Below are positions 45,311 to 54,750 of a stretch of DNA of 64,000 bases, piece by piece; within the stretch, counting starts at the first letter, position 1; each line of letters starts with the position of its first letter. This DNA is from Escherichia coli. GTDB lineage: Bacteria; Pseudomonadota; Gammaproteobacteria; Enterobacterales; Enterobacteriaceae. Location of the stretch: the NCBI RefSeq assembly GCF_041886205.1, contig NZ_CP169029.1; one strand, 5' to 3'. The notes under the pieces were generated by a model that was not told where the DNA came from, did no database searches, and worked only from the letters and a program-made list of their open reading frames with translations. The position numbers and the translations under genes are program-made.

Positions 45311-48300
45311 TTAGAACGTTTTCTTGAAGTTCAGCATCACGCCTTTGTCGCTGATGCCGTCCTCTTTCCAGTTGTACGCATCCAGATTCAGCGAACTTTC
45401 TTTGCTGCTGTACTTCACGCCGACGCTTGCCAGGCTGTTAATGCCGCCGCCCTTCTGACCGTCATCGACGTTAAAGTGCTGACTGCCTGCGCCTGCCAGG
45501 CTTGCCGTACGCTGGCTCTTCGCGTAGCTCAGGTTCGGCCCGCCTTCCAGCGTGGCGTTCGCACTCCAGCCGTCTTTTCCTGCATAATCCAGCTTCAGCC
45601 CGACGATGCTGTCCACCGCCGTTTCGCTGCCGCTGTTCATATTCAGGTTAAAGTCTCCGGCGTTACGCTCCTTATAGCCACCTTCCAGTGTGTGACGCAG
45701 TTTTACACCCGCATATGGCGTAACCTTCAGTCCTTCGCTCGGTTCGAAAGTCTTCGCTCCTTCGCTACGGAACTCCAGGTACTGCTGCTTCACGTCGGTA
45801 TCAGCCGTTTTGTTCGTGTTGCTAAATGCAATCGAGCGGCTGCTGTCAAGGTTGTGAACGTCGTAACGCAAGGCGTTATTCCAGTTCATGCCATTGTCGA
45901 AGGACATCTGATGTTTCAGGCCAAAGAACTGGCTATAACCGCCTGTAACGCCATTATCACCCGCTTTCTGCGCACCATCACCATCGAGACGAGCGATACC
46001 GTACTCCAGACTCATCGTCTGGCTTTCGCTCAGGTCGATGGTTTTACGCAATGCCAGCATGTCGTATTCGGTATTATTACCTAACTCGGCACGCGGATCG
46101 CCTTTCGCGACAACGTTGAACGCCAGACCGTTACCTACCTTCGGTGCGGCATCCGCCAACATACTAAAGCGGTTGCTTAACACGCGCGCTTCGCGGAATA
46201 CCGTGGTCGCCTGGCTACCGCTGACCTGTTTCAGAGCGCTGTTCAGTTCAGCAGTCGTGCCGACGTTCAGGCTGGTAAACAGTTCGTTGTTGGTGTAACC
46301 CGCATCCAGTGCTTTCGCGATGTCATTCACCGAAGCATCTGTTGCCACATCGGTATAAGCGTTTTTGCTCATGGTGACGTCAACGTTACCGCTGGCATCG
46401 GTGCTGCCTTTAGCAGTCCATACCACGGAGGTTGAGGTGATAGCATCCGCGTCGGTCAGGTTGCTGCCCTCCACCACGTTATCAAAATTAACGGTGGTGT
46501 CTGCCGTACAAGCGGTAAACCCGGTGTTGATCCCCACGCCGTTCATGCTGGCATTGTTGACCCTGAGCTTACCGGCGCTGCCATCGGCACTCGTTCCCAC
46601 CACGTAACCGTTGAGATTATTCATGCCGCCATCAACTGCATCACTTCCCGGCGTTAGGCTAACCGTAGTGGGATTCGGTACATCCGGCAACGTATAGTCG
46701 CCATAATGCAATTCCGTGTTATTACCGTTGTTACCGTTCACGCCTTCAACATTGACGCTGTCGCCCTGCTTAATCAGCCCCGATCCTGTCACGCCATCCG
46801 CAATGACCACCGTGCCGTTGTTGACCACGTGACCTTCTGTACCCAGCACGCTGAATGCAAACGAGTCATTGGCGAAGATATTGATGGTGCCGTTGTTCTC
46901 GATCACCGCATCCGCCGTGGCGTTAGCATCGAGTTGCATACCGATCATGCCCGTATCGGTAGTGCCCTCTGTACCGAGGTTGATGGTGCCAGTGTTAACC
47001 AGTTGCGCATTCTTATCACCTTCCATAGCCACAGCACCGGTGCCGCTGATATTCATCGTGCCGTCATTCTGCGCAATGAAGTTACTGTGAGTGAATTTCA
47101 CGGCGCTGGTACTGTCGTGGTCGAAGTTGATGACCCCGTTATCCAGATTCCAGAAGAATGCGCTCTGATCGCCAGCGTTATTGGCGCTCACCACCAGCGA
47201 CTTCGCAGAGACATCAATCGTTCCATCGTTGATAAAGCGACCATTCCCACCCCACATATTGACAGCACCGTTATGTGAGGAATTACTGATGTCCATGTGA
47301 CCAGTGTTATAAAGCGTACCGGACTGATTAATATGCACAGCATTCTTGTTGTTATCGAGGATAAACTCACCGCTGTTATTGAAGACGGCGTTGTTATTAA
47401 CTTCCAGCATACCTGCGTTATTGCCGCCACTGCTACTACCGAGGCGCCAGGTTCCTTCGTTATTGACCCAGGCATCACCGGTTAATGCAGAACCATTGTC
47501 CACTTTGCCATCTTGTAGGTTATTAAAGATGCCACTGGTCTGAATAATACGTTTACTCACCGTACCACTGTTATTAAAGACGCCGGATTTTTGCACAACA
47601 TTGCTAATAGTACCGGAGTTGTTCACCAGATTAGTGCTAGCCCCAGCATACATTGTCACATTACCGTTGATGGTACCCTCATTATTGAGTACCCCCCCCT
47701 GAGCATCAATATTACCCATCGAGCCAGCATTATCTATTACAGCATCTGGTGCCAATTTCACCATGGAGTTAATAATCCCCGTAGAGGCATTTTCGAGCGT
47801 ACCACTCCGAACGTTAATATCACTACCAGAAGCCGTCCCCGCATTAATAACGCTTCCGGGCACTGCGTCAGTTATCACCACAGAATTAATGAAGTTTGTC
47901 GACTCACCATCTGCCACCAGGATATCACCACCAGAGTATTGCAATGAGACATAATTATCGCCCTGGTTATATTCATCCGCACTCTGACAAATACCAAAAG
48001 TACAGAACCTGCCATAGTTAATAATTATTCCTGTTCCATCGCTGTAAAATGCCTGGCCGATATTTGTATCGATATTAATTACACCCGTTATATCATTAAT
48101 TGCCATACCACTATTAATTGCACCCACCGCGAACAGCTGGTTCTCTTGCTGCTTCGTCACGCCCTCATCTGCGGTGAGGTTGATTGTCCCCTGGTTGACA
48201 ACGGTCCCGCCGCTCATCGCCAGCATACCGAAACCTTCGTTATTAACATTGATGGTTCCGGTATTTAACCCACTGGCATCGCCATTTCCGATATCGGTTG

Positions 48301-51196
48301 ACCCCACAAGAACGCCACCGGACATAAGATAAGGATGGGACGTTTGCCAGTAGGATTTACTGATGATATTACCATCGCTGTCCAGTTCGGGAATAAAGCC
48401 ATCGACATTGATTTCCCCGGCGTTGGTCGCCGTGCCTTTAGATGCGGCGACGGCATAAATCCCCGCCCCCTGCAGATTCATGGTGGCGTCGGATTCATTG
48501 ATCACGCTGCCATCATTACTGGCCCACAGACCATAGTTGGCACCGAAATACCATTTCAGAGGGGCTTCAGATATCCCTCCGGCAAAAGCAGGCGTCGTTA
48601 CAGAAAGCAGATTTATCACGCCACCCGACGCATTCGTAACCTGAGAATTCTGGCCACGAGCACGCATTGTCCCCACCGTGGTGAATTGCTCACCGCTAGG
48701 TTTGACATTAATAGTTCCACTATTAGTGATATGTGCACCATTGTTAGCCATCATTAAATCCTGGCTATCCAGCGTGTTAATCACACCTTTGTTTTCAACG
48801 CCGGACTGACTGCCAGTAGCAGAAATAAGCGCACGATTATCGAAGAAATAGTCGGTATCTCTGACTTTACTGGATATATCCGTTACAGAGTTTTTATCAA
48901 ATATAACATTTCCACCGTCCGCCACCGTGACCAACGTAAAGGCACCCACTACCTGACGGATATCCATAGTTGAATGGCCACTAATGTTAACTGTATTATC
49001 ACCAATAATTGATATACCATCTATGATATGCGCGGAGCTATCCCCAGCAACATTAATACCACCATCGATATTAATGGTATTATTCGTACCGGAAACGACC
49101 ATGCCATTCGCCAAGTGATCTTGATATATTAATACACCTTCCACCGTAATATTAACATGACCACTAATATCCACCGTGTTATTTTCACCACTGATCACGC
49201 CGCCGCTTATCGGAGTGATTTGTGCATCAGCGTTATCGCCGAGACTGGAATTAATATTAATGCTTCCGTCAACGCTAATATGGCTGTCATTACCCGTCAG
49301 GCTGAAACCTGTAGCACCCGGCGCATTGCCTTCGCTATCTGGTTGCTGGAATACGTTAATATCTCCGCTTAATTCAACCTGCTCACGGTCACCCACAATG
49401 GATACCCCAGTTCCGTATCGCGAAACATCAATTTCGCCCACGTTACCAAAAACTTCATCATCACCATCTATCAGAACTCCCACAGAACCGGAATCCGTAA
49501 CAACAATCTTGCCTTTATTACTTATCTGCGAGTTATTACCGGCGATATAAATACCCGTTGCCCCTCCGCTGACGTAGAGGTCACCTTCCTGGCTAATTGT
49601 TGCATTGTGCCCAGCAACTTTTGTCCCTACCGCATTCTCACCGTCAACCGTCATATCCCCGGCGATATTCATCTCATTGCCATCGCCAGTGATGGTTATA
49701 CCGGTGGCATTCTCACCCAAAATATTAAGATCATAGGTCGCCAGGGTAATACTATTGTTGTCGCCGATAATCTCCATGCCGGTTGTATCGTCTTTAACCA
49801 ACATCGAGCCAGCAAGCGAAATACTGCTGCTGTCCCCGGTGATTTTTACACCAGTACCGTTATTTGTCGTGGTGATGTCCCCCACATTGACAAAGGTAGT
49901 ATTATCACCATTGATTAACACGCCATAGGGGTTTCCATCACCGTCCGCCTGACCAACATTGATATCACCAATGTTCATAAAGGTTGTCTGATCGCCATCC
50001 AGCAACACACCGATGGAACTGTCATCCACCACAGTAATATTACCTTTATTACTGATGACAGTACCCTTACCCTCGGCGTCAATACCGTGTGCGCCACCGC
50101 TGACGTATAAGTCACCCTGCTGCCTTACAATGGCATCTTCGCCGATAATTTTTGACCCCGTTGAATTTGCACCATCAACGGTCATGTCGCCTTTGATTTC
50201 AACGCGGGCATCATCCCCTGTAATCACACTCCCCGTGCCTCCATTCGCGATTTCAACATCACCAACGGTGTCCAGCGTGGTACGATCGCCATTAACAATA
50301 ACTGCCGCCCCACCATCAACTTCCGTCTCACCATTATTAGTAATGGTGATATCATCACCGGTAAGAATACCTACCACCGAACCTTCACCAATCGCGGTAG
50401 TTTTGCCATCGTTGTTCAGGGTGATGTCGTTACCGTCAACGTTTATCACAACGCCGCCATTCAGCGCGATGTTGCCGCCATGGTCGGTAATAGTGGCATC
50501 GTTAATATGGAAATGTTCGCCAGTTGTACCGTCTGCGGTGGTGAGTGACTCTATGATTATTTCGATTTTTCCCGCTTCGTCATAGCGCCAGGTGGAGGTT
50601 CCGCCAGGATTGACGCCATTGAACGAAGCCGTGTTAGCCGCCTCGTCGACTAACCAATCCTTCACGATTGTGGTAGTGCCGCCAGGTCCGGTAAGCGTAT
50701 AGCTGCCATCGTCATTTTTGGTGTAGGTAAAGGTGGTATCACGTAATTTTAGGGTCTTCGCGTCCTGATCCCAGGTGACATCGTTTTTATAGACCACAGG
50801 ATCGTGTTTGACTGGCGTGTCATCGCCACCGTCGTCCGGGGTATCATCGCCGCCATCATCCGGCGGGACAGGTGTGTCGCCGCCATCATCCGGCACCGGA
50901 GACGGATCGTCATGATGATTATTATTATCGTGGAGTGCATATACTGCGACGCCTGTGACTGCCGCTGCCAGCCCCACTGCAGCCCAGGGTAATAACTCAT
51001 TATCTTCAACTGATTTACACTCTGCCGGCAGCTTTTCTAGCTGTTCTTTACTTAGTGATTTAATATTAGCCGGGCAGCTAATCTTGCTGGATTTACGAGA
51101 TTCATCCGATGTTTCCGCTATCGACGTATCTGCCGCCCATGTCTGACTGCTTAACGCCATTGCAACACAGACACTGAGCAATTTTTTCCTTTGCAT
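45311..51196 (-). CDS. ydbA: Intact autotransporter YdbA, 1961 aa (signal peptide, repetitive beta-helix passenger, C-terminal beta-barrel)
   Basis: Single ORF 45311..51196; signal peptide MQRKKLLSVCVAMALSSQTWA; GD/GN-rich repeats; C-terminal barrel ending KKTF; SD GAGGA upstream of ATG. Confidence 0.85.
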   Translation of the reverse strand: MQRKKLLSVCVAMALSSQTWAADTSIAETSDESRKSSKISCPANIKSLSKEQLEKLPAECKSVEDNELLPWAAVGLAAAVTGVAVYALHDNNNHHDDPSPVPDDGGDTPVPPDDGGDDTPDDGGDDTPVKHDPVVYKNDVTWDQDAKTLKLRDTTFTYTKNDDGSYTLTGPGGTTTIVKDWLVDEAANTASFNGVNPGGTSTWRYDEAGKIEIIIESLTTADGTTGEHFHINDATITDHGGNIALNGGVVINVDGNDITLNNDGKTTAIGEGSVVGILTGDDITITNNGETEVDGGAAVIVNGDRTTLDTVGDVEIANGGTGSVITGDDARVEIKGDMTVDGANSTGSKIIGEDAIVRQQGDLYVSGGAHGIDAEGKGTVISNKGNITVVDDSSIGVLLDGDQTTFMNIGDINVGQADGDGNPYGVLINGDNTTFVNVGDITTTNNGTGVKITGDSSSISLAGSMLVKDDTTGMEIIGDNNSITLATYDLNILGENATGITITGDGNEMNIAGDMTVDGENAVGTKVAGHNATISQEGDLYVSGGATGIYIAGNNSQISNKGKIVVTDSGSVGVLIDGDDEVFGNVGEIDVSRYGTGVSIVGDREQVELSGDINVFQQPDSEGNAPGATGFSLTGNDSHISVDGSININSSLGDNADAQITPISGGVISGENNTVDISGHVNITVEGVLIYQDHLANGMVVSGTNNTINIDGGINVAGDSSAHIIDGISIIGDNTVNISGHSTMDIRQVVGAFTLVTVADGGNVIFDKNSVTDISSKVRDTDYFFDNRALISATGSQSGVENKGVINTLDSQDLMMANNGAHITNSGTINVKPSGEQFTTVGTMRARGQNSQVTNASGGVINLLSVTTPAFAGGISEAPLKWYFGANYGLWASNDGSVINESDATMNLQGAGIYAVAASKGTATNAGEINVDGFIPELDSDGNIISKSYWQTSHPYLMSGGVLVGSTDIGNGDASGLNTGTINVNNEGFGMLAMSGGTVVNQGTINLTADEGVTKQQENQLFAVGAINSGMAINDITGVINIDTNIGQAFYSDGTGIIINYGRFCTFGICQSADEYNQGDNYVSLQYSGGDILVADGESTNFINSVVITDAVPGSVINAGTASGSDINVRSGTLENASTGIINSMVKLAPDAVIDNAGSMGNIDAQGGVLNNEGTINGNVTMYAGASTNLVNNSGTISNVVQKSGVFNNSGTVSKRIIQTSGIFNNLQDGKVDNGSALTGDAWVNNEGTWRLGSSSGGNNAGMLEVNNNAVFNNSGEFILDNNKNAVHINQSGTLYNTGHMDISNSSHNGAVNMWGGNGRFINDGTIDVSAKSLVVSANNAGDQSAFFWNLDNGVINFDHDSTSAVKFTHSNFIAQNDGTMNISGTGAVAMEGDKNAQLVNTGTINLGTEGTTDTGMIGMQLDANATADAVIENNGTINIFANDSFAFSVLGTEGHVVNNGTVVIADGVTGSGLIKQGDSVNVEGVNGNNGNNTELHYGDYTLPDVPNPTTVSLTPGSDAVDGGMNNLNGYVVGTSADGSAGKLRVNNASMNGVGINTGFTACTADTTVNFDNVVEGSNLTDADAITSTSVVWTAKGSTDASGNVDVTMSKNAYTDVATDASVNDIAKALDAGYTNNELFTSLNVGTTAELNSALKQVSGSQATTVFREARVLSNRFSMLADAAPKVGNGLAFNVVAKGDPRAELGNNTEYDMLALRKTIDLSESQTMSLEYGIARLDGDGAQKAGDNGVTGGYSQFFGLKHQMSFDNGMNWNNALRYDVHNLDSSRSIAFSNTNKTADTDVKQQYLEFRSEGAKTFEPSEGLKVTPYAGVKLRHTLEGGYKERNAGDFNLNMNSGSETAVDSIVGLKLDYAGKDGWSANATLEGGPNLSYAKSQRTASLAGAGSQHFNVDDGQKGGGINSLASVGVKYSSKESSLNLDAYNWKEDGISDKGVMLNFKKTF
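50818..50896. repeat. Imperfect tandem repeat (three ~24-30-bp units) encoding Pro/Asp/Gly-rich linker in ydbA
   Basis: Repeated TCGCCGCCATCATCCGG units encoding PDDGGD(D)TP x3. Confidence 0.6.
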
Positions 51197-51597
51197 ATGA
51201 AATTCCTCATAAATAGATGATTACGCAGCCCAGATAAACTGCACAGGGTTAAATAGTTACAAATATTCGAAATCTGGATATTGTTTTTAACAGAATAAAT
51301 ATATTGATTTAGCGAATGCATTTATTCATTAAGTCAATACATCTTTTCTTTAATTTATATTTTTAACGCATTTATTTCAACTTAAAATATGACGCAATTG
51401 AGATTAAATCCGATAACACTGATGAATTAAATAATGCAATTAATTCATGAAATAAATAAATTATCATGTGAATGAAGCATTCATCATCGGCATCTATATG
51501 AAATTAAATGAAAAATAATTCTCAATAGCATTGCAGTTAATATTGAATATTTCAGGAGGTACAACCAGGCAGATTTTTCTCGACGAATACCGACTTA
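51197..51597. promoter_or_regulatory. Highly AT-rich 400-bp intergenic region upstream of ydbA (probable promoter / nucleoid-protein-bound region)
   Basis: Long AT-rich tracts between ydbL stop and ydbA start. Confidence 0.4.
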
Positions 51598-51924
51598 TTA
51601 TTTTTGCAACCACATTCCGTTTATCCCGCGAATGTATTCTCCCGGCTTAGCTTTTGCTACCAGTTTCTGCCCCGCCAATTTTTCCACTTCCGCAACCGGC
51701 AGATTATTTTTCATGGCGAGTTGTTGATAGCTCTTATTACGCGATTCATTAATCCTTTTGACTAACATCTGTGTTTCGGTATCCGCCTTTAATGCAACCA
51801 GATAACCATTATACGTTTCGCCAACACGCCCCTGAGTTCGAGCGTCATCCAGCGTCAGAGCCATCGCACTGGTGCTAAATAAGGCATTAATGACAAAACA
51901 CAGTATTAAACTTCTCTTCATCAT
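51598..51924 (-). CDS. ydbL: Periplasmic protein YdbL (DUF1318), 108 aa
   Basis: ORF 51598..52002; ATG at 51924 (MMKRSLILCFVINALFSTSAMA signal peptide). Confidence 0.8.
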   Translation of the reverse strand: MMKRSLILCFVINALFSTSAMALTLDDARTQGRVGETYNGYLVALKADTETQMLVKRINESRNKSYQQLAMKNNLPVAEVEKLAGQKLVAKAKPGEYIRGINGMWLQK

Positions 51925-51928
51925 CGCC

Positions 51929-52114
51929 TCAGAAAAGATCGCTACGAGTTTCAAGCAGCTCTTCGACATCTTTGTCTGCCTTGATGATGATCTCATGCTC
52001 AATTTTAACGTTCATATTGATAGTGATCGGTTCCTTAGGTGCAGCGACTTCAATGCGAGGCGTACAGCCAACCAGCATAAAAGATGACGTCAACGCAGCC
52101 AGTAAAATTTTCAT
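51929..52114 (-). CDS. ynbE: Lipoprotein YnbE, 61 aa
   Basis: ORF 51929..52114; lipobox LVGC; start overlaps ydbH stop. Confidence 0.8.
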   Translation of the reverse strand: MKILLAALTSSFMLVGCTPRIEVAAPKEPITINMNVKIEHEIIIKADKDVEELLETRSDLF

Positions 52115-54750
52115 TGTTTTTCCTCACACTCTTTTCCTTGCGGACAGTCATTTCCCGGCAGACGTGCGTTCTGCTCCAACCATGCCTGGAGATTATCGCC
52201 AAAGCGTAAACTGCGCCACAGCGTAAAAATATTCTCTTCATGATGGTAATTAAGGTTTACCGTACCGCTTTTACCATCAACGCGACTGGTACCTGTAATG
52301 TTGGCCTGCATGGTTAATAAACCGAGATTATCTAAATTAATATTTGTCGATGAACGGCTAATTTCCATATAGCGCAACCAGTTAATTGCTGAACCCGCAG
52401 TCATATTGTCTTTCACCACCGCATCTGCGGTGTCTTTATCCAGCCGCAAGGTCATTGGCCCGCTATTTGCCAGCCAACCATCTTTCACTATCCATTTTTC
52501 GTTGTTTAGCCATAACGGCAATGCACCACTAAATGCCCCGGACATGGCGAATTGTTTCGGATTGACGGCGCTAACCAGTTCGCTGGATGAGAGATTATTC
52601 AGCCGCAACAGCGCCGAGTCATGTTGCGGCATACGTAATTGTTTCATCAGTACGTTACCGCCTAACACATCGACGCTAACATCAGTCAACAGTAATGGTT
52701 CTTCTTCAGTCCACGGATAACGCCCTTGCAAATCAGCCGTAATATTTTTCGCTGTCACCAGATTAATCACTTCGGCAATTCGCAACGTAACGGGGCCGCG
52801 AGTCCCCAGATGCCAGGCTCCATCGGCAAAACGGAAAGGCAGGACAAAATCGACACCGTTAACCTGATTATCTGGCATCCAGGCACTACCGCCTTTCAAC
52901 ACGCCGTGCCCTCCCGCGCGGAATCCTTGTTCAGGCGCAGCAGAAAATGCAACCTGAGCATACAGTTCACCATCGCGTAAGTTCATCTTCCAGTCGGGTG
53001 GCACCAGCGGCTGGAATACAGTCAGTGATTGTTTAGGCCACCAGGCGTTACCGCGCAGACGAATACCGTCCCAGCGACCATTTACCCGAACCGGGCCAAT
53101 CTCACCAGCATGTAAATCGCCTTTAAAGAGGAAATAGGTCGGATCGCGCCCATCGACGCTAAATTTTAAGGTTGATGGCGGTAACACACTGCCGCCAGTG
53201 AACAGCGTTTGCCCGGCGTCCAGTGACAGCGCGCCGCTAAAAGAGGGATGCTGTGCGTCACGTACCCAGACGACGGGCTTGTCGAGAATTAATCGCGGCT
53301 TTTCTACCGTCATCGTACCGTATTGTAACTGGTCGAAACCGGTGGAGAGATCGGTCAGTGTAATCGTGCTGTCATGCCACTCACCCTTTCCTGCGACATC
53401 CCAGGTGGCATTCATCGGTGTAAAACTGCCTTTTCCCCAGTAGCGCCACTGCCAGCGGCCAGCGTCAGGGAGAAAATCATTCGCCAGCCCATCCATATGC
53501 AGCACGAAATCGCCCAGTTCATTTTCATGCGCCTGCAAAATGGCCTGCAAACGTCCGTCAACACCACGTTGGGTGACTTTTACACCCGCTAAAGGCCAGC
53601 GGATTTCATCGATGTCCAGCGAATCGATGACTCTTCCCTTCGAACGTAATAACGCGCCGGGCTCAAAGGCCAGCGTTGGGTCAGTCAGACTTCCACTTAG
53701 CTGCGCGGGTAAGCGGGCATATAAAATGAGGTCCGCCTGTTTCGCTTCACCGGTCAGCTGTAAAGGCAGCTGGCTGTTATCCATGCTTAATTTTCCTGGG
53801 CCAAAATTAAGCACCGCGTTGCCCTTACCCGCTTGCCCCTGGGTCAGCACACTCAGTCGTCCGCTGACCAAAGCGTTCTCAAGCCCTGCCTGCCAGTTGT
53901 CGACTTTGACACCCAGTCGGCCACTCAAAGGAAAACCTGCATACGGCCAGCTCCAGCGACCATCGCTTACGGTCAATTGTTGACGAGTAATTTGCCACGG
54001 CAAATCGAGCAACGGATCGCCGTTATCCCGTGCCAGCACGATCAATTGCCCGCTATTTTCCTGCCAGTCCAGCTCGGCATCCACCAGTGACGGTTCCTGA
54101 GGCAAGTTTAACGTCGCAGTAGCATGACCACTTACAGGAAGTCCATCCGGCACTAGCGGCATAGTAAATTCCCCCACCAGTTTTACCGGCGGCTGATTTT
54201 CAAACGCGACGACATCCAGTTCGCTGACTGTAAGTTGTTGCCCTTTCAGCTGGCCTTGAAATTTAACTTTTTCGCCCTGATAACGCAGTTGCTGGATATC
54301 AGAGGTTAATGCGAGAGAGAGTTTTCCCTGCCATTCCTGCCAGGGAGAAAAAATCAGTTTATCGATATTGATCCAGGTGTTAGGCAGCATGGACTGCCAC
54401 TGCGCGAGGGTTTTTGGAGCAGCTGGCGATTGCTCCGTCTGCGGCAATTTCGCCAGACAAGCAGAATCAAGTTCTACCGTGCCGACGTTCAATAACCAGC
54501 GGCTCGAATGTGAAAGGCTGGCGTTGGTGATATGCGCAAGCTGACAATCTCCCACCAGATAACGGAGATCGGGAATGATTAAACCTTTACGCGTAATGCG
54601 TGGGCTTTCATCTAATGCAATACGTGTCCCGAGCGGTAGCCAGATGCCCGCCAGTGTGGGAACCCACAGCCCGAGCGTCATCAGCAGCGTCAACGGCACA
54701 AGAATAATCAGTAATAACAGCGCGAGAACGGCTTTATATTTACCCAGCAT
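52111..54750 (-). CDS. ydbH: AsmA-family envelope protein YdbH, 879 aa
   Basis: ORF 52111..54750; N-terminal TM anchor, large periplasmic beta-rich domain. Confidence 0.9.
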   Translation of the reverse strand: MLGKYKAVLALLLLIILVPLTLLMTLGLWVPTLAGIWLPLGTRIALDESPRITRKGLIIPDLRYLVGDCQLAHITNASLSHSSRWLLNVGTVELDSACLAKLPQTEQSPAAPKTLAQWQSMLPNTWINIDKLIFSPWQEWQGKLSLALTSDIQQLRYQGEKVKFQGQLKGQQLTVSELDVVAFENQPPVKLVGEFTMPLVPDGLPVSGHATATLNLPQEPSLVDAELDWQENSGQLIVLARDNGDPLLDLPWQITRQQLTVSDGRWSWPYAGFPLSGRLGVKVDNWQAGLENALVSGRLSVLTQGQAGKGNAVLNFGPGKLSMDNSQLPLQLTGEAKQADLILYARLPAQLSGSLTDPTLAFEPGALLRSKGRVIDSLDIDEIRWPLAGVKVTQRGVDGRLQAILQAHENELGDFVLHMDGLANDFLPDAGRWQWRYWGKGSFTPMNATWDVAGKGEWHDSTITLTDLSTGFDQLQYGTMTVEKPRLILDKPVVWVRDAQHPSFSGALSLDAGQTLFTGGSVLPPSTLKFSVDGRDPTYFLFKGDLHAGEIGPVRVNGRWDGIRLRGNAWWPKQSLTVFQPLVPPDWKMNLRDGELYAQVAFSAAPEQGFRAGGHGVLKGGSAWMPDNQVNGVDFVLPFRFADGAWHLGTRGPVTLRIAEVINLVTAKNITADLQGRYPWTEEEPLLLTDVSVDVLGGNVLMKQLRMPQHDSALLRLNNLSSSELVSAVNPKQFAMSGAFSGALPLWLNNEKWIVKDGWLANSGPMTLRLDKDTADAVVKDNMTAGSAINWLRYMEISRSSTNINLDNLGLLTMQANITGTSRVDGKSGTVNLNYHHEENIFTLWRSLRFGDNLQAWLEQNARLPGNDCPQGKECEEKQ

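Follow-up and report, generated by a model that had tools for sequence, protein, structure and literature searches.

A conserved N-terminal module with a second hydrophobic segment and a repeat linker of variable length in the BigA/YdbA family of type Va autotransporters

Type Va autotransporters represent the textbook "simple" secretion system, composed of a signal peptide, a passenger and a barrel. Here we describe the N-terminus of the autotransporter encoded by ydbA in a stretch of 64,000 nucleotides of Escherichia coli DNA (NCBI RefSeq assembly GCF_041886205.1, contig NZ_CP169029.1; hereafter the window), in which a predicted signal peptide is followed by a Cys loop, an uncharged hydrophobic segment and an acidic linker built as a variable-number tandem repeat (VNTR). 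The protein is related to BigA, which Celik et al. (PMC3419190) assign to the AIDA-like passengers, combined with a NalP-type (group 6) barrel.

The closest functional likeness to this arrangement is found in VacA, the autotransporter toxin of Helicobacter pylori, whose 32 uncharged N-terminal residues contain GXXXG motifs and are required for channel formation, and whose N-terminal hydrophobic stretch crosses both the inner and the outer membrane before acting (PMC4926140). VacA and the BigA/YdbA proteins display no sequence homology, and toxin activity is known for VacA only. Moreover, the 32 residues of VacA include three strict GXXXG motifs, whereas the BigA/YdbA segment spans 17-28 residues and has a single invariant Gly in a small-xxx-small pattern, with a VNTR spacer behind it. 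Judged as a VacA-like region, namely one at the extreme N-terminus with tandem GXXXG motifs, the BigA/YdbA segment falls outside the definition, and the resemblance is functional only.

Other described systems share single traits with this locus. The extended signal peptide region (ESPR) found in large autotransporters is reported to slow translocation or the release from the inner membrane (PMC5023192), and the likeness is that very large type V proteins bear an additional element at the N-terminus. The ESPR extends upstream of the n-region of the signal peptide and is removed with it, whereas the BigA/YdbA element lies past the cleavage site and is kept on the mature protein; furthermore, an ESPR is recognized as a conserved N-terminal extension with a total of ~50-60 amino acids (aa), and the signal peptide studied here has 21 aa.

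NalP and SphB1 are N-terminally lipidated autotransporters, and resemble BigA/YdbA in that the N-terminal end of their passenger bears a hydrophobic group that binds membranes. The barrel class of BigA is also that of NalP (PMC3419190). The group is an acyl chain in NalP and SphB1 and a peptide helix in YdbA, where no lipobox exists since the signal peptide ends in SSQTWA followed by Ala; the motif [LVI][ASTG][GA]C was absent at the signal-peptide end, and C10, located within the h-region, is not part of a lipobox.

Pertactin and other surface proteins contain polymorphic in-frame repeats. The likeness here is an in-frame tandem repeat in an autotransporter passenger with a number that differs by strain, and the difference is that the YdbA unit is of 30 bp (10 aa), strongly acidic, and located between the hydrophobic helix and the first folded domain instead of in a β-helix loop.

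The N-terminal module and its conservation in the family

The window protein begins with MQRKKLLSVCVAMALSSQTWA followed by AD, a predicted Sec signal peptide of 21 residues assigned by inspection, with n-region RKK, a 10-residue h-region (LLSVCVAMAL) and c-region SSQTWA; position -1 is Ala in 11 of 11 aligned homologues, and position -3 is a small residue. The ensuing residues 22-67 are hydrophilic (46 residues, 17 of them charged, net charge -3) and end with a Cys loop of pattern C41-P-x5-L-[ST]-x2-[EQ]-x3-L-P-x2-C60 and its acidic flank, after which the hydrophobic segment starts. The first-pass annotation of this DNA, made from the letters alone, had listed a signal peptide, a Cys-containing segment, a hydrophobic stretch, the residues NNNHHDD and acidic repeats, and the translation agrees with each of these parts, the full cluster being HDNNNHHDD. 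The second hydrophobic segment it described is present, with the length corrected from 20 to 21 residues (68-88), and the proposed separation of this stretch from the signal peptide is borne out by the charged residues and the conserved Cys pair that lie between them.

One could argue that the segment is an extended or misplaced signal peptide resulting from a wrong start, or that the first 90 residues of the protein are an artefact of annotation or fusion, and some alleles do have a Met just ahead of the segment (e.g., NLMPW in K-12). We consider this explanation hardly credible: the window sequence has no Met at that place (ELLPW), the segment is not preceded by a basic n-region and lies 46 residues beyond the predicted cleavage site, and the upstream 67 residues form one conserved open reading frame (ORF) in at least 5 genera, in which the Cys pair is invariant and the A-x-A site canonical.

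A search of 1.84 billion representative proteins with a profile built on the first ~100 residues matched 80 clusters, essentially always at residues 1 to ~100; the sole exception, P0091, in which the Cys-loop part was matched in 7 stretches, was rejected as spurious, being an unrelated helical-repeat protein. Full-length matched members comprise 1300-2070 aa and have the C-terminal barrel in common, and the named ones belong to Escherichia coli, E. albertii, Salmonella, Yokenella, Enterobacter, Citrobacter and [Enterobacter] lignolyticus. The parts follow an identical order in 26 of 26 long members, including those from Escherichia, Enterobacter, Citrobacter and Yokenella: an ordinary signal peptide in which position -3 is small and position -1 is Ala, the Cys loop, 5-20 mostly acidic residues, a Trp-capped uncharged segment, a stretch rich in Asn, Ser, Gly, Asp and His, and a Pro/Asp/Gly-rich repeat. 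Homology of the family with the window protein is full-length and includes the N-terminal module, residues 1-129 corresponding to positions 1-125 of the NCBIfam profile (E=7e-19). By these alignments, residues 1-129 are shown to constitute a conserved, family-specific N-terminal module of the BigA/YdbA autotransporters. Consequently, what had been regarded as the unusual N-terminus of one allele is a trait common to the whole family; the accompanying remark that a further hydrophobic helix is atypical among type Va autotransporters was correct.

Conservation of the Cys loop (60% identity) and of the helix (39%) equals or exceeds that of the folded BigA_N domain (37%). After the linker is set aside, the Cys loop is the best-conserved N-terminal segment (60.5% identity), with C41, P42, L56 and C60 invariant in a 22-sequence alignment; 18 residues separate the two Cys in 24 of 26 members, and 20 in the remaining 2. 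The AlphaFold2 model displays short helices in this loop, with a predicted local distance difference test (pLDDT) score of ~78.

No other 19-mer of the protein is as hydrophobic as residues 68-86 of this segment (Kyte-Doolittle mean 1.77), and the uncharged segment ranges from 17 to 28 aa across the family. In the 22-sequence alignment G75 is invariant and W71 (95%), A78 (86%), A73 (77%) and G74 (73%) are conserved; positions 73/74/75/77/78/81/82/84 are mostly occupied by Gly, Ala, Ser or Thr, and positions 72/76/79/83/85 by Val, Ile or Leu. This residue pattern is, as read from the alignment, that of small-xxx-small helix packing and not that of a generic greasy anchor, and the small-residue face together with the invariant Gly points to helix-helix association in a membrane; in the window the small-xxx-small pairs are G75-A79 and A78-G82. 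The flank past the segment is family-wide rich in Asn, Asp, Gly, Ser and His (0-4 His) and nearly devoid of Lys and Arg. A docking of the helix into the BigA_N barrel was considered and dropped, as the AlphaFold2 model shows no packing of the segment on the Cys loop or on BigA_N; several relatives without a detected BigA_N domain still have the helix.

Regarding previous knowledge, the BigA/YdbA family is known and the window adds only an allele to it. Neither Pfam nor NCBIfam holds a model dedicated to this module alone, profile and sequence searches of the PDB returned no match for the module or for the whole protein, and the literature searched on YdbA and BigA mentions the N-terminal helix, the Cys loop and the VNTR nowhere.

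An in-frame 30-bp VNTR in the acidic linker

The linker of the window allele contains the units PVPDDGGDTPVPPDDGGDDTPDDGGDDTPV, i.e., three degenerate copies of PDDGGD(D)TP. A repeat search recovered three 24-nt copies at 50814-50837, 50838-50861 and 50871-50894, the last two with 79% and 67% identity to the first. The three tandem copies reported in the first-pass annotation at 50818..50896 are thus present, with the coordinates displaced by a few bases (50814-50894). Tandem Repeats Finder yielded nothing on the window array, even at score 30, because the array is short and degenerate.

The proposal that the copy number might vary was corroborated by a comparison across ydbA alleles from 15 complete E. 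coli genomes, which were picked to span length classes and are not a random sample: the number of PPDDGGDTPV units per genome was 2, 5, 7, 7, 8, 9, 9, 10, 10, 12, 12, 13, 14, 15 and 19, that is, 2-19 units, and linkers ranged from 32 to 202 residues, the window having 3 units. Strains EFF60 and CP52E have the same flanks as the window and differ from it solely in insertions of 150 and 180 bp, each made up of whole 30-bp units, and sister alleles with flanks identical to those of the window have 8-12 units. In longer arrays the repeat was detected by Tandem Repeats Finder, with period 30 in both VE-T9 (10.6 copies, 89% matches) and G6/7 (17.3 copies, 93% matches). In addition, the match lengths suggest at least 5 length classes. 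From these alignments of alleles, the spacer is shown to be an in-frame 30-bp VNTR that gains and loses whole units between close strains, and the window allele is, by the same comparison, a contracted and partly degenerate remnant of it, for which reason its array looks like three imperfect 24-30-bp repeats. A search of the literature for the ydbA 30-bp VNTR as an established locus for multilocus VNTR analysis of E. coli O157 found nothing. Early typing schemes of this kind for O157 include a 30-bp locus, which might correspond to it.

Repeats are also present outside E. coli, with 16 units in an E. albertii protein and 15 units of the 7-residue PDDGGNT in another relative. The units of other genera have wholly different sequences (PDPT/PDPI, VDPVDP, DGGSGGDT or TGNGGDN), and the AlphaFold2 confidence for the linker is low; what is conserved is an acidic and Pro/Gly-rich spacer, presumably disordered, as opposed to a motif.

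Independently of the role of the helix, the repeat variation may reflect neutral slippage in a disordered spacer without length-dependent function, or antigenic variation of an immunodominant surface loop, and we regard the case for and against this explanation as evenly balanced; a function of the repeat number, if there is one, might concern how far the tip reaches or antigenic variation. The complete replacement of the unit between genera fits selection on composition and extension instead of on a binding motif, the copy number varies within O157:H7 and closely related genomes alone (2, 5, 7 and 9 units), and polymorphic Pro-rich repeats are generally known from pertactin. Conversely, all length changes are in frame, and every family member keeps an acidic Pro/Gly-rich spacer, which argues that the spacer as such is under selection.

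Export of the module and possible roles of the helix

The fate of the N-terminal module depends on the secretion pathway of the protein, and in this regard the C-terminus is informative. An AlphaFold2 model of the last 330 aa (pLDDT 85.8; predicted template modelling score 0.81) contains a helix at residues 34-51 followed by ~12 long β-strands, and its best Foldseek matches in the PDB are the translocators of AaaA, EstA, EspP and NalP (E 6e-9 to 3e-6). The protein terminates in MLNFKKTF, and the C-terminal aromatic residue of the β-signal, F330, is invariant in 15 sequences. The generic Autotransporter domain model of Pfam did not match the window ORF even at E<=1, despite this translocator fold. 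With a modelled barrel and preceding helix, a signal peptide assigned by inspection and a terminal aromatic residue, the window protein has the predicted attributes of a type Va autotransporter.

Because the C-terminus is a genuine type Va barrel, the 1870 residues past the helix must leave the cytoplasm. A stable anchor with its N-terminus out and its C-terminus in would therefore strand these 1870 residues and the C-terminal barrel in the cytoplasm, and a hydropathy scan found no other hydrophobic segment in the protein able to re-initiate export. The membrane-anchor reading of the first-pass annotation is accordingly weak on several counts. Hessa free energies, calculated as simple sums without position weighting, are +2.98 for the window and +0.4 to +4.1 in 27 sequences, all of them positive (median ~+2 kcal/mol); the family segment consists of 30% Ala, 17% Gly, 15% Val and <1% Phe; and, of the 25 residues past it, none is Lys/Arg in the window or in the majority of members, whereas 2-9 are Asp/Glu and as many as 4 are His. 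This acidic flank is the opposite of the positive-inside rule. The segment thus does not fit a stop-transfer (type I) anchor, which calls for an apparent free energy of 0 or less and a basic cytoplasmic flank, and a stable inner-membrane stop-transfer role is unlikely. Since the module corresponds neither to an ESPR, nor to a lipobox, a stop-transfer anchor or a VacA-type region, we describe the protein as a type Va autotransporter with a conserved proteinaceous, transmembrane (TM)-like N-terminal element on a VNTR tether.

We tentatively favour a reading in which the module is exported and the helix serves as a membrane-inserting or self-associating element held on a polyanionic tether at the tip of the passenger, and we consider it possible, although somewhat short of probable. 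Under this reading, the helix would pass SecYEG owing to its marginal hydrophobicity and to the acidic, Lys/Arg-free downstream flank. The net-negative disordered spacer and the disulfide loop of <20 residues would be compatible with passage of the outer membrane by the autotransporter route, and the module would reach the outer-membrane translocator last, and would therefore sit at the distal end of the passenger. There, the tether would be flexible, polyanionic and of strain-specific length, and the helix might insert into a membrane or self-associate via its small-xxx-small face. Disordered passengers secreted by the autotransporter route are described in PMC4174580 as critically dependent on acidic residues, natural passengers being mostly acidic, and disulfide loops of >20 residues are stated to be incompatible with translocation of the Pet autotransporter in a passage of PMC10269718 that quotes Leyton 2011. 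Export of the module is plausible because the linker (net charge -14) and the mature protein (-140) are acidic and the family loop has 18 residues, below the 20-residue limit.

Several observations weigh against this reading. By conventional measures the segment would be called TM, given its Kyte-Doolittle value of 1.77 (threshold >1.6) and its Wimley-White octanol energy of -2.7 kcal/mol, and, with ~19-21 uncharged aa and a Trp bordering it on the N-terminal side, it resembles a true bilayer-spanning helix. At the same time, 57% of composition shuffles attain a hydropathy of 1.77, the protein being long and rich in Val, Ala and Gly, and 19% attain an uncharged run of 21 residues; with both values reached by shuffles of the window sequence, hydropathy and run length were dropped as stand-alone evidence, and the significance of the segment comes from its conservation, as the single-sequence hydropathy is within the shuffle range. 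Strict GxxxG is absent in the window allele, and in the AlphaFold2 model of residues 1-220 the segment is unpacked and not confidently predicted (pLDDT 34-44). The relative P0094 carries a Lys in the linker. The hydrophobic region of VacA is located at the extreme mature N-terminus, whereas 46 residues precede the BigA/YdbA segment. Lastly, the final location of the helix is a matter on which we can only infer, and the literature searched holds no characterised function of BigA or YdbA, but only candidate adhesins or gene lists, pseudogenes and the barrel classification.

The main rival explanation is that the helix acts as a transient inner-membrane tether during biogenesis, which we rate as rather unlikely, though deserving of attention. 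After signal-peptide cleavage, the helix would linger within the periplasmic leaflet or at the lateral gate of SecYEG and hold the N-terminus of a ~2000-residue unfolded passenger, with the acidic spacer providing slack, until the barrel engages the β-barrel assembly machinery (BAM); it would thus be a functional analogue of the ESPR, which the BigA/YdbA family lacks. The short signal peptide (21 aa) and very large passenger agree with such a role, as do a marginal hydrophobicity suited to reversible membrane association and a helix length suited to the bilayer. A mere tether, nonetheless, needs no invariant Gly, small-residue face or fixed 18-residue disulfide loop; it leaves a hypervariable VNTR spacer (32-202 residues) unexplained, and no conserved partner gene was found nearby.

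A permanent retention of the N-terminus is still less probable, and we give it little weight. It proposes that the disulfide loop and the helix are kept in the periplasm or inner membrane and that the Pro-rich acidic repeat crosses the periplasm and the outer membrane, so that the passenger is held at both ends and the repeat number tunes the span. The length of the helix and its Trp cap are like those of a real membrane helix, TonB-type proteins are generally known to span the periplasm with Pro-rich extended spacers, and the loop is about as large as an autotransporter can export, going by the same passage on Pet. To our knowledge, a passenger held at both ends has no precedent in type Va. 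Moreover, once the signal peptide is cleaved both flanks of the helix are periplasmic, and no inner-membrane span is compatible with an exportable passenger; two chains would have to remain forever inside a 12-stranded barrel that already contains an α-helix, and linkers of 32-41 residues, as in the window and ERL06-2442, are hardly enough for the periplasm plus the outer membrane. A second and less exotic alternative would make the His/Asp-flanked helix a peptide at the tip of the adhesin that inserts into membranes when triggered by pH or a metal.

The ydbA gene, its locus and implications for the family

The name YdbA given in the first-pass annotation is confirmed by synteny, by a K-12 ydbA N-terminus of like architecture and by both Pfam BigA domains. 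BigA_N (PF25784) was found at residues 134-213 with 89.8 bits (E=1.3e-25; gathering cut-off of 24.5 exceeded), and BigA_beta (PF25783) at residues 1530-1613 with 81.5 bits (gathering cut-off of 24.3 exceeded). The NCBIfam model auto_BigA (NF033178, "autotransporter adhesin BigA") aligned with residues 424-1961 (E=0). The score of 1329 bits is far under the curated cut-off of 3400 of this exception-type model, so the window protein is a YdbA orthologue and BigA homologue and not Salmonella BigA itself. The coordinates of all features are presented in Table 1. The BigA_N domain is all-β in the AlphaFold2 model, with pLDDT >=95, and BigA_3rd and BigA_4th of Pfam, which are outside the library scanned for the window protein, were seen in precomputed hits of relatives. 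Besides C41 and C60, the Cys residues of the mature protein are the pair C1065/C1070 (CTFGIC, C-x4-C, ~47987-48004) and the lone C1563; the C-x4-C pair recurs in many relatives (e.g., ICTFGNC and ICADGSC). Cys residues in autotransporter passengers are scarce and closely spaced, a rule that the C-x4-C pair fits.

Table 1. Coordinates of the ydbA gene, of the parts of its product and of the adjacent intergenic region in the window
Feature	Position	Strand	Basis
ydbA/bigA-family type Va autotransporter gene, intact, 1961 aa	45311..51196	minus	ORF, Pfam, NCBIfam, synteny
Sec signal peptide, residues 1-21, predicted cleavage between A21 and A22	51134..51196	minus	read from sequence
Acidic first part of the mature protein, variable, residues 22-40	51077..51133	minus	22.5% mean identity in family
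Conserved Cys loop, C41 to C60	51017..51076	minus	22-sequence alignment; 26-member survey
Gly/Ala-rich uncharged segment LLPWAAVGLAAAVTGVAVYAL, residues 68-88	50933..50995	minus	hydropathy, alignment
His/Asn/Asp cluster HDNNNHHDD, residues 89-97	50906..50932	minus	sequence
Acidic Pro-rich repeat linker PSPVPDDGGDTPVPPDDGGDDTPDDGGDDTPV, residues 98-129, contracted 3-unit VNTR	50810..50905	minus	DNA copies, sister alleles
BigA_N β-barrel domain, residues 134-213, first folded passenger domain past the linker	50558..50797	minus	PF25784; AlphaFold2
C-terminal translocator, α-helix and ~12-stranded β-barrel, ending in NFKKTF	45314..46303	minus	AlphaFold2, Foldseek
AT-rich intergenic region ydbL/ydbA, 24-28% GC	51197..51597	.	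composition profile; flanking genes ~50%

Directly upstream of ydbA and on the same strand are ydbH, ynbE and ydbL, and downstream is an ORF of 286 aa, the length of pdxI. The genes ydbH, ynbE, ydbL and ydbA (51598-54750 and 45311-51196) are contiguous and co-oriented, and so they are in 13 of the 13 other E. coli loci that show the upstream gene. Beside distant family members no conserved partner gene was found, their neighbourhoods being unrelated, and thus the adjacency to ydbH-ynbE-ydbL in E. coli is probably just local synteny. In K-12, paaY lies directly upstream of ydbA, the fea/tynA/paa gene cluster presumably sitting between ydbL and ydbA. The locus of the window is that of K-12 ydbA, with the difference that ydbA of K-12 MG1655 (locus 1465392-1474013) is an annotated pseudogene interrupted by IS2D and IS30C, and the window copy is intact.

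The AT-rich stretch that separates ydbL from ydbA may represent a promoter region under silencing or regulation; a single weak sigma-70-like site was recognized in it (51380-51352), and shuffles yield more. At the place matching 51197-51597, a related strain has a 21-bp AT-rich tandem repeat (548-608 of its locus).

Database entries for this gene are heterogeneous. In several O157:H7 genomes ydbA is annotated as truncated products of ~960-1030 aa, under the names "proline-rich domain-containing", "hypothetical" and "beta strand repeat-containing" protein; one entry is a chimera with a methyltransferase, and one YdbA fragment is labelled "EntS/YbdA MFS transporter", apparently by a mix-up of the names ydbA and ybdA. 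Many "partial BigA" proteins end within the repeat array, a sign that the ydbA VNTR probably breaks short-read assemblies.

With regard to the biology of the family, BigA and YdbA are often listed as adhesin or virulence candidates and are uncharacterised, and the module described here means that, in this enterobacterial family of giant autotransporters, a TM-like helix after the cleavable signal peptide is added to the three parts of the simple type Va scheme. This poses a topological question, namely how the helix avoids arresting export and where it ends up, and its function may be approached through the invariant Gly, the 18-residue disulfide loop of fixed size and the His/Asp cluster. If the N-terminus were indeed permanently retained, these would be type V proteins held at both ends across the envelope, with a span reset by VNTR slippage. 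The 30-bp VNTR, to which broken assemblies and "partial BigA" annotations would also be due, constitutes in its range of 2-19 units a natural experiment on tether length and a source of strain-to-strain surface variation.

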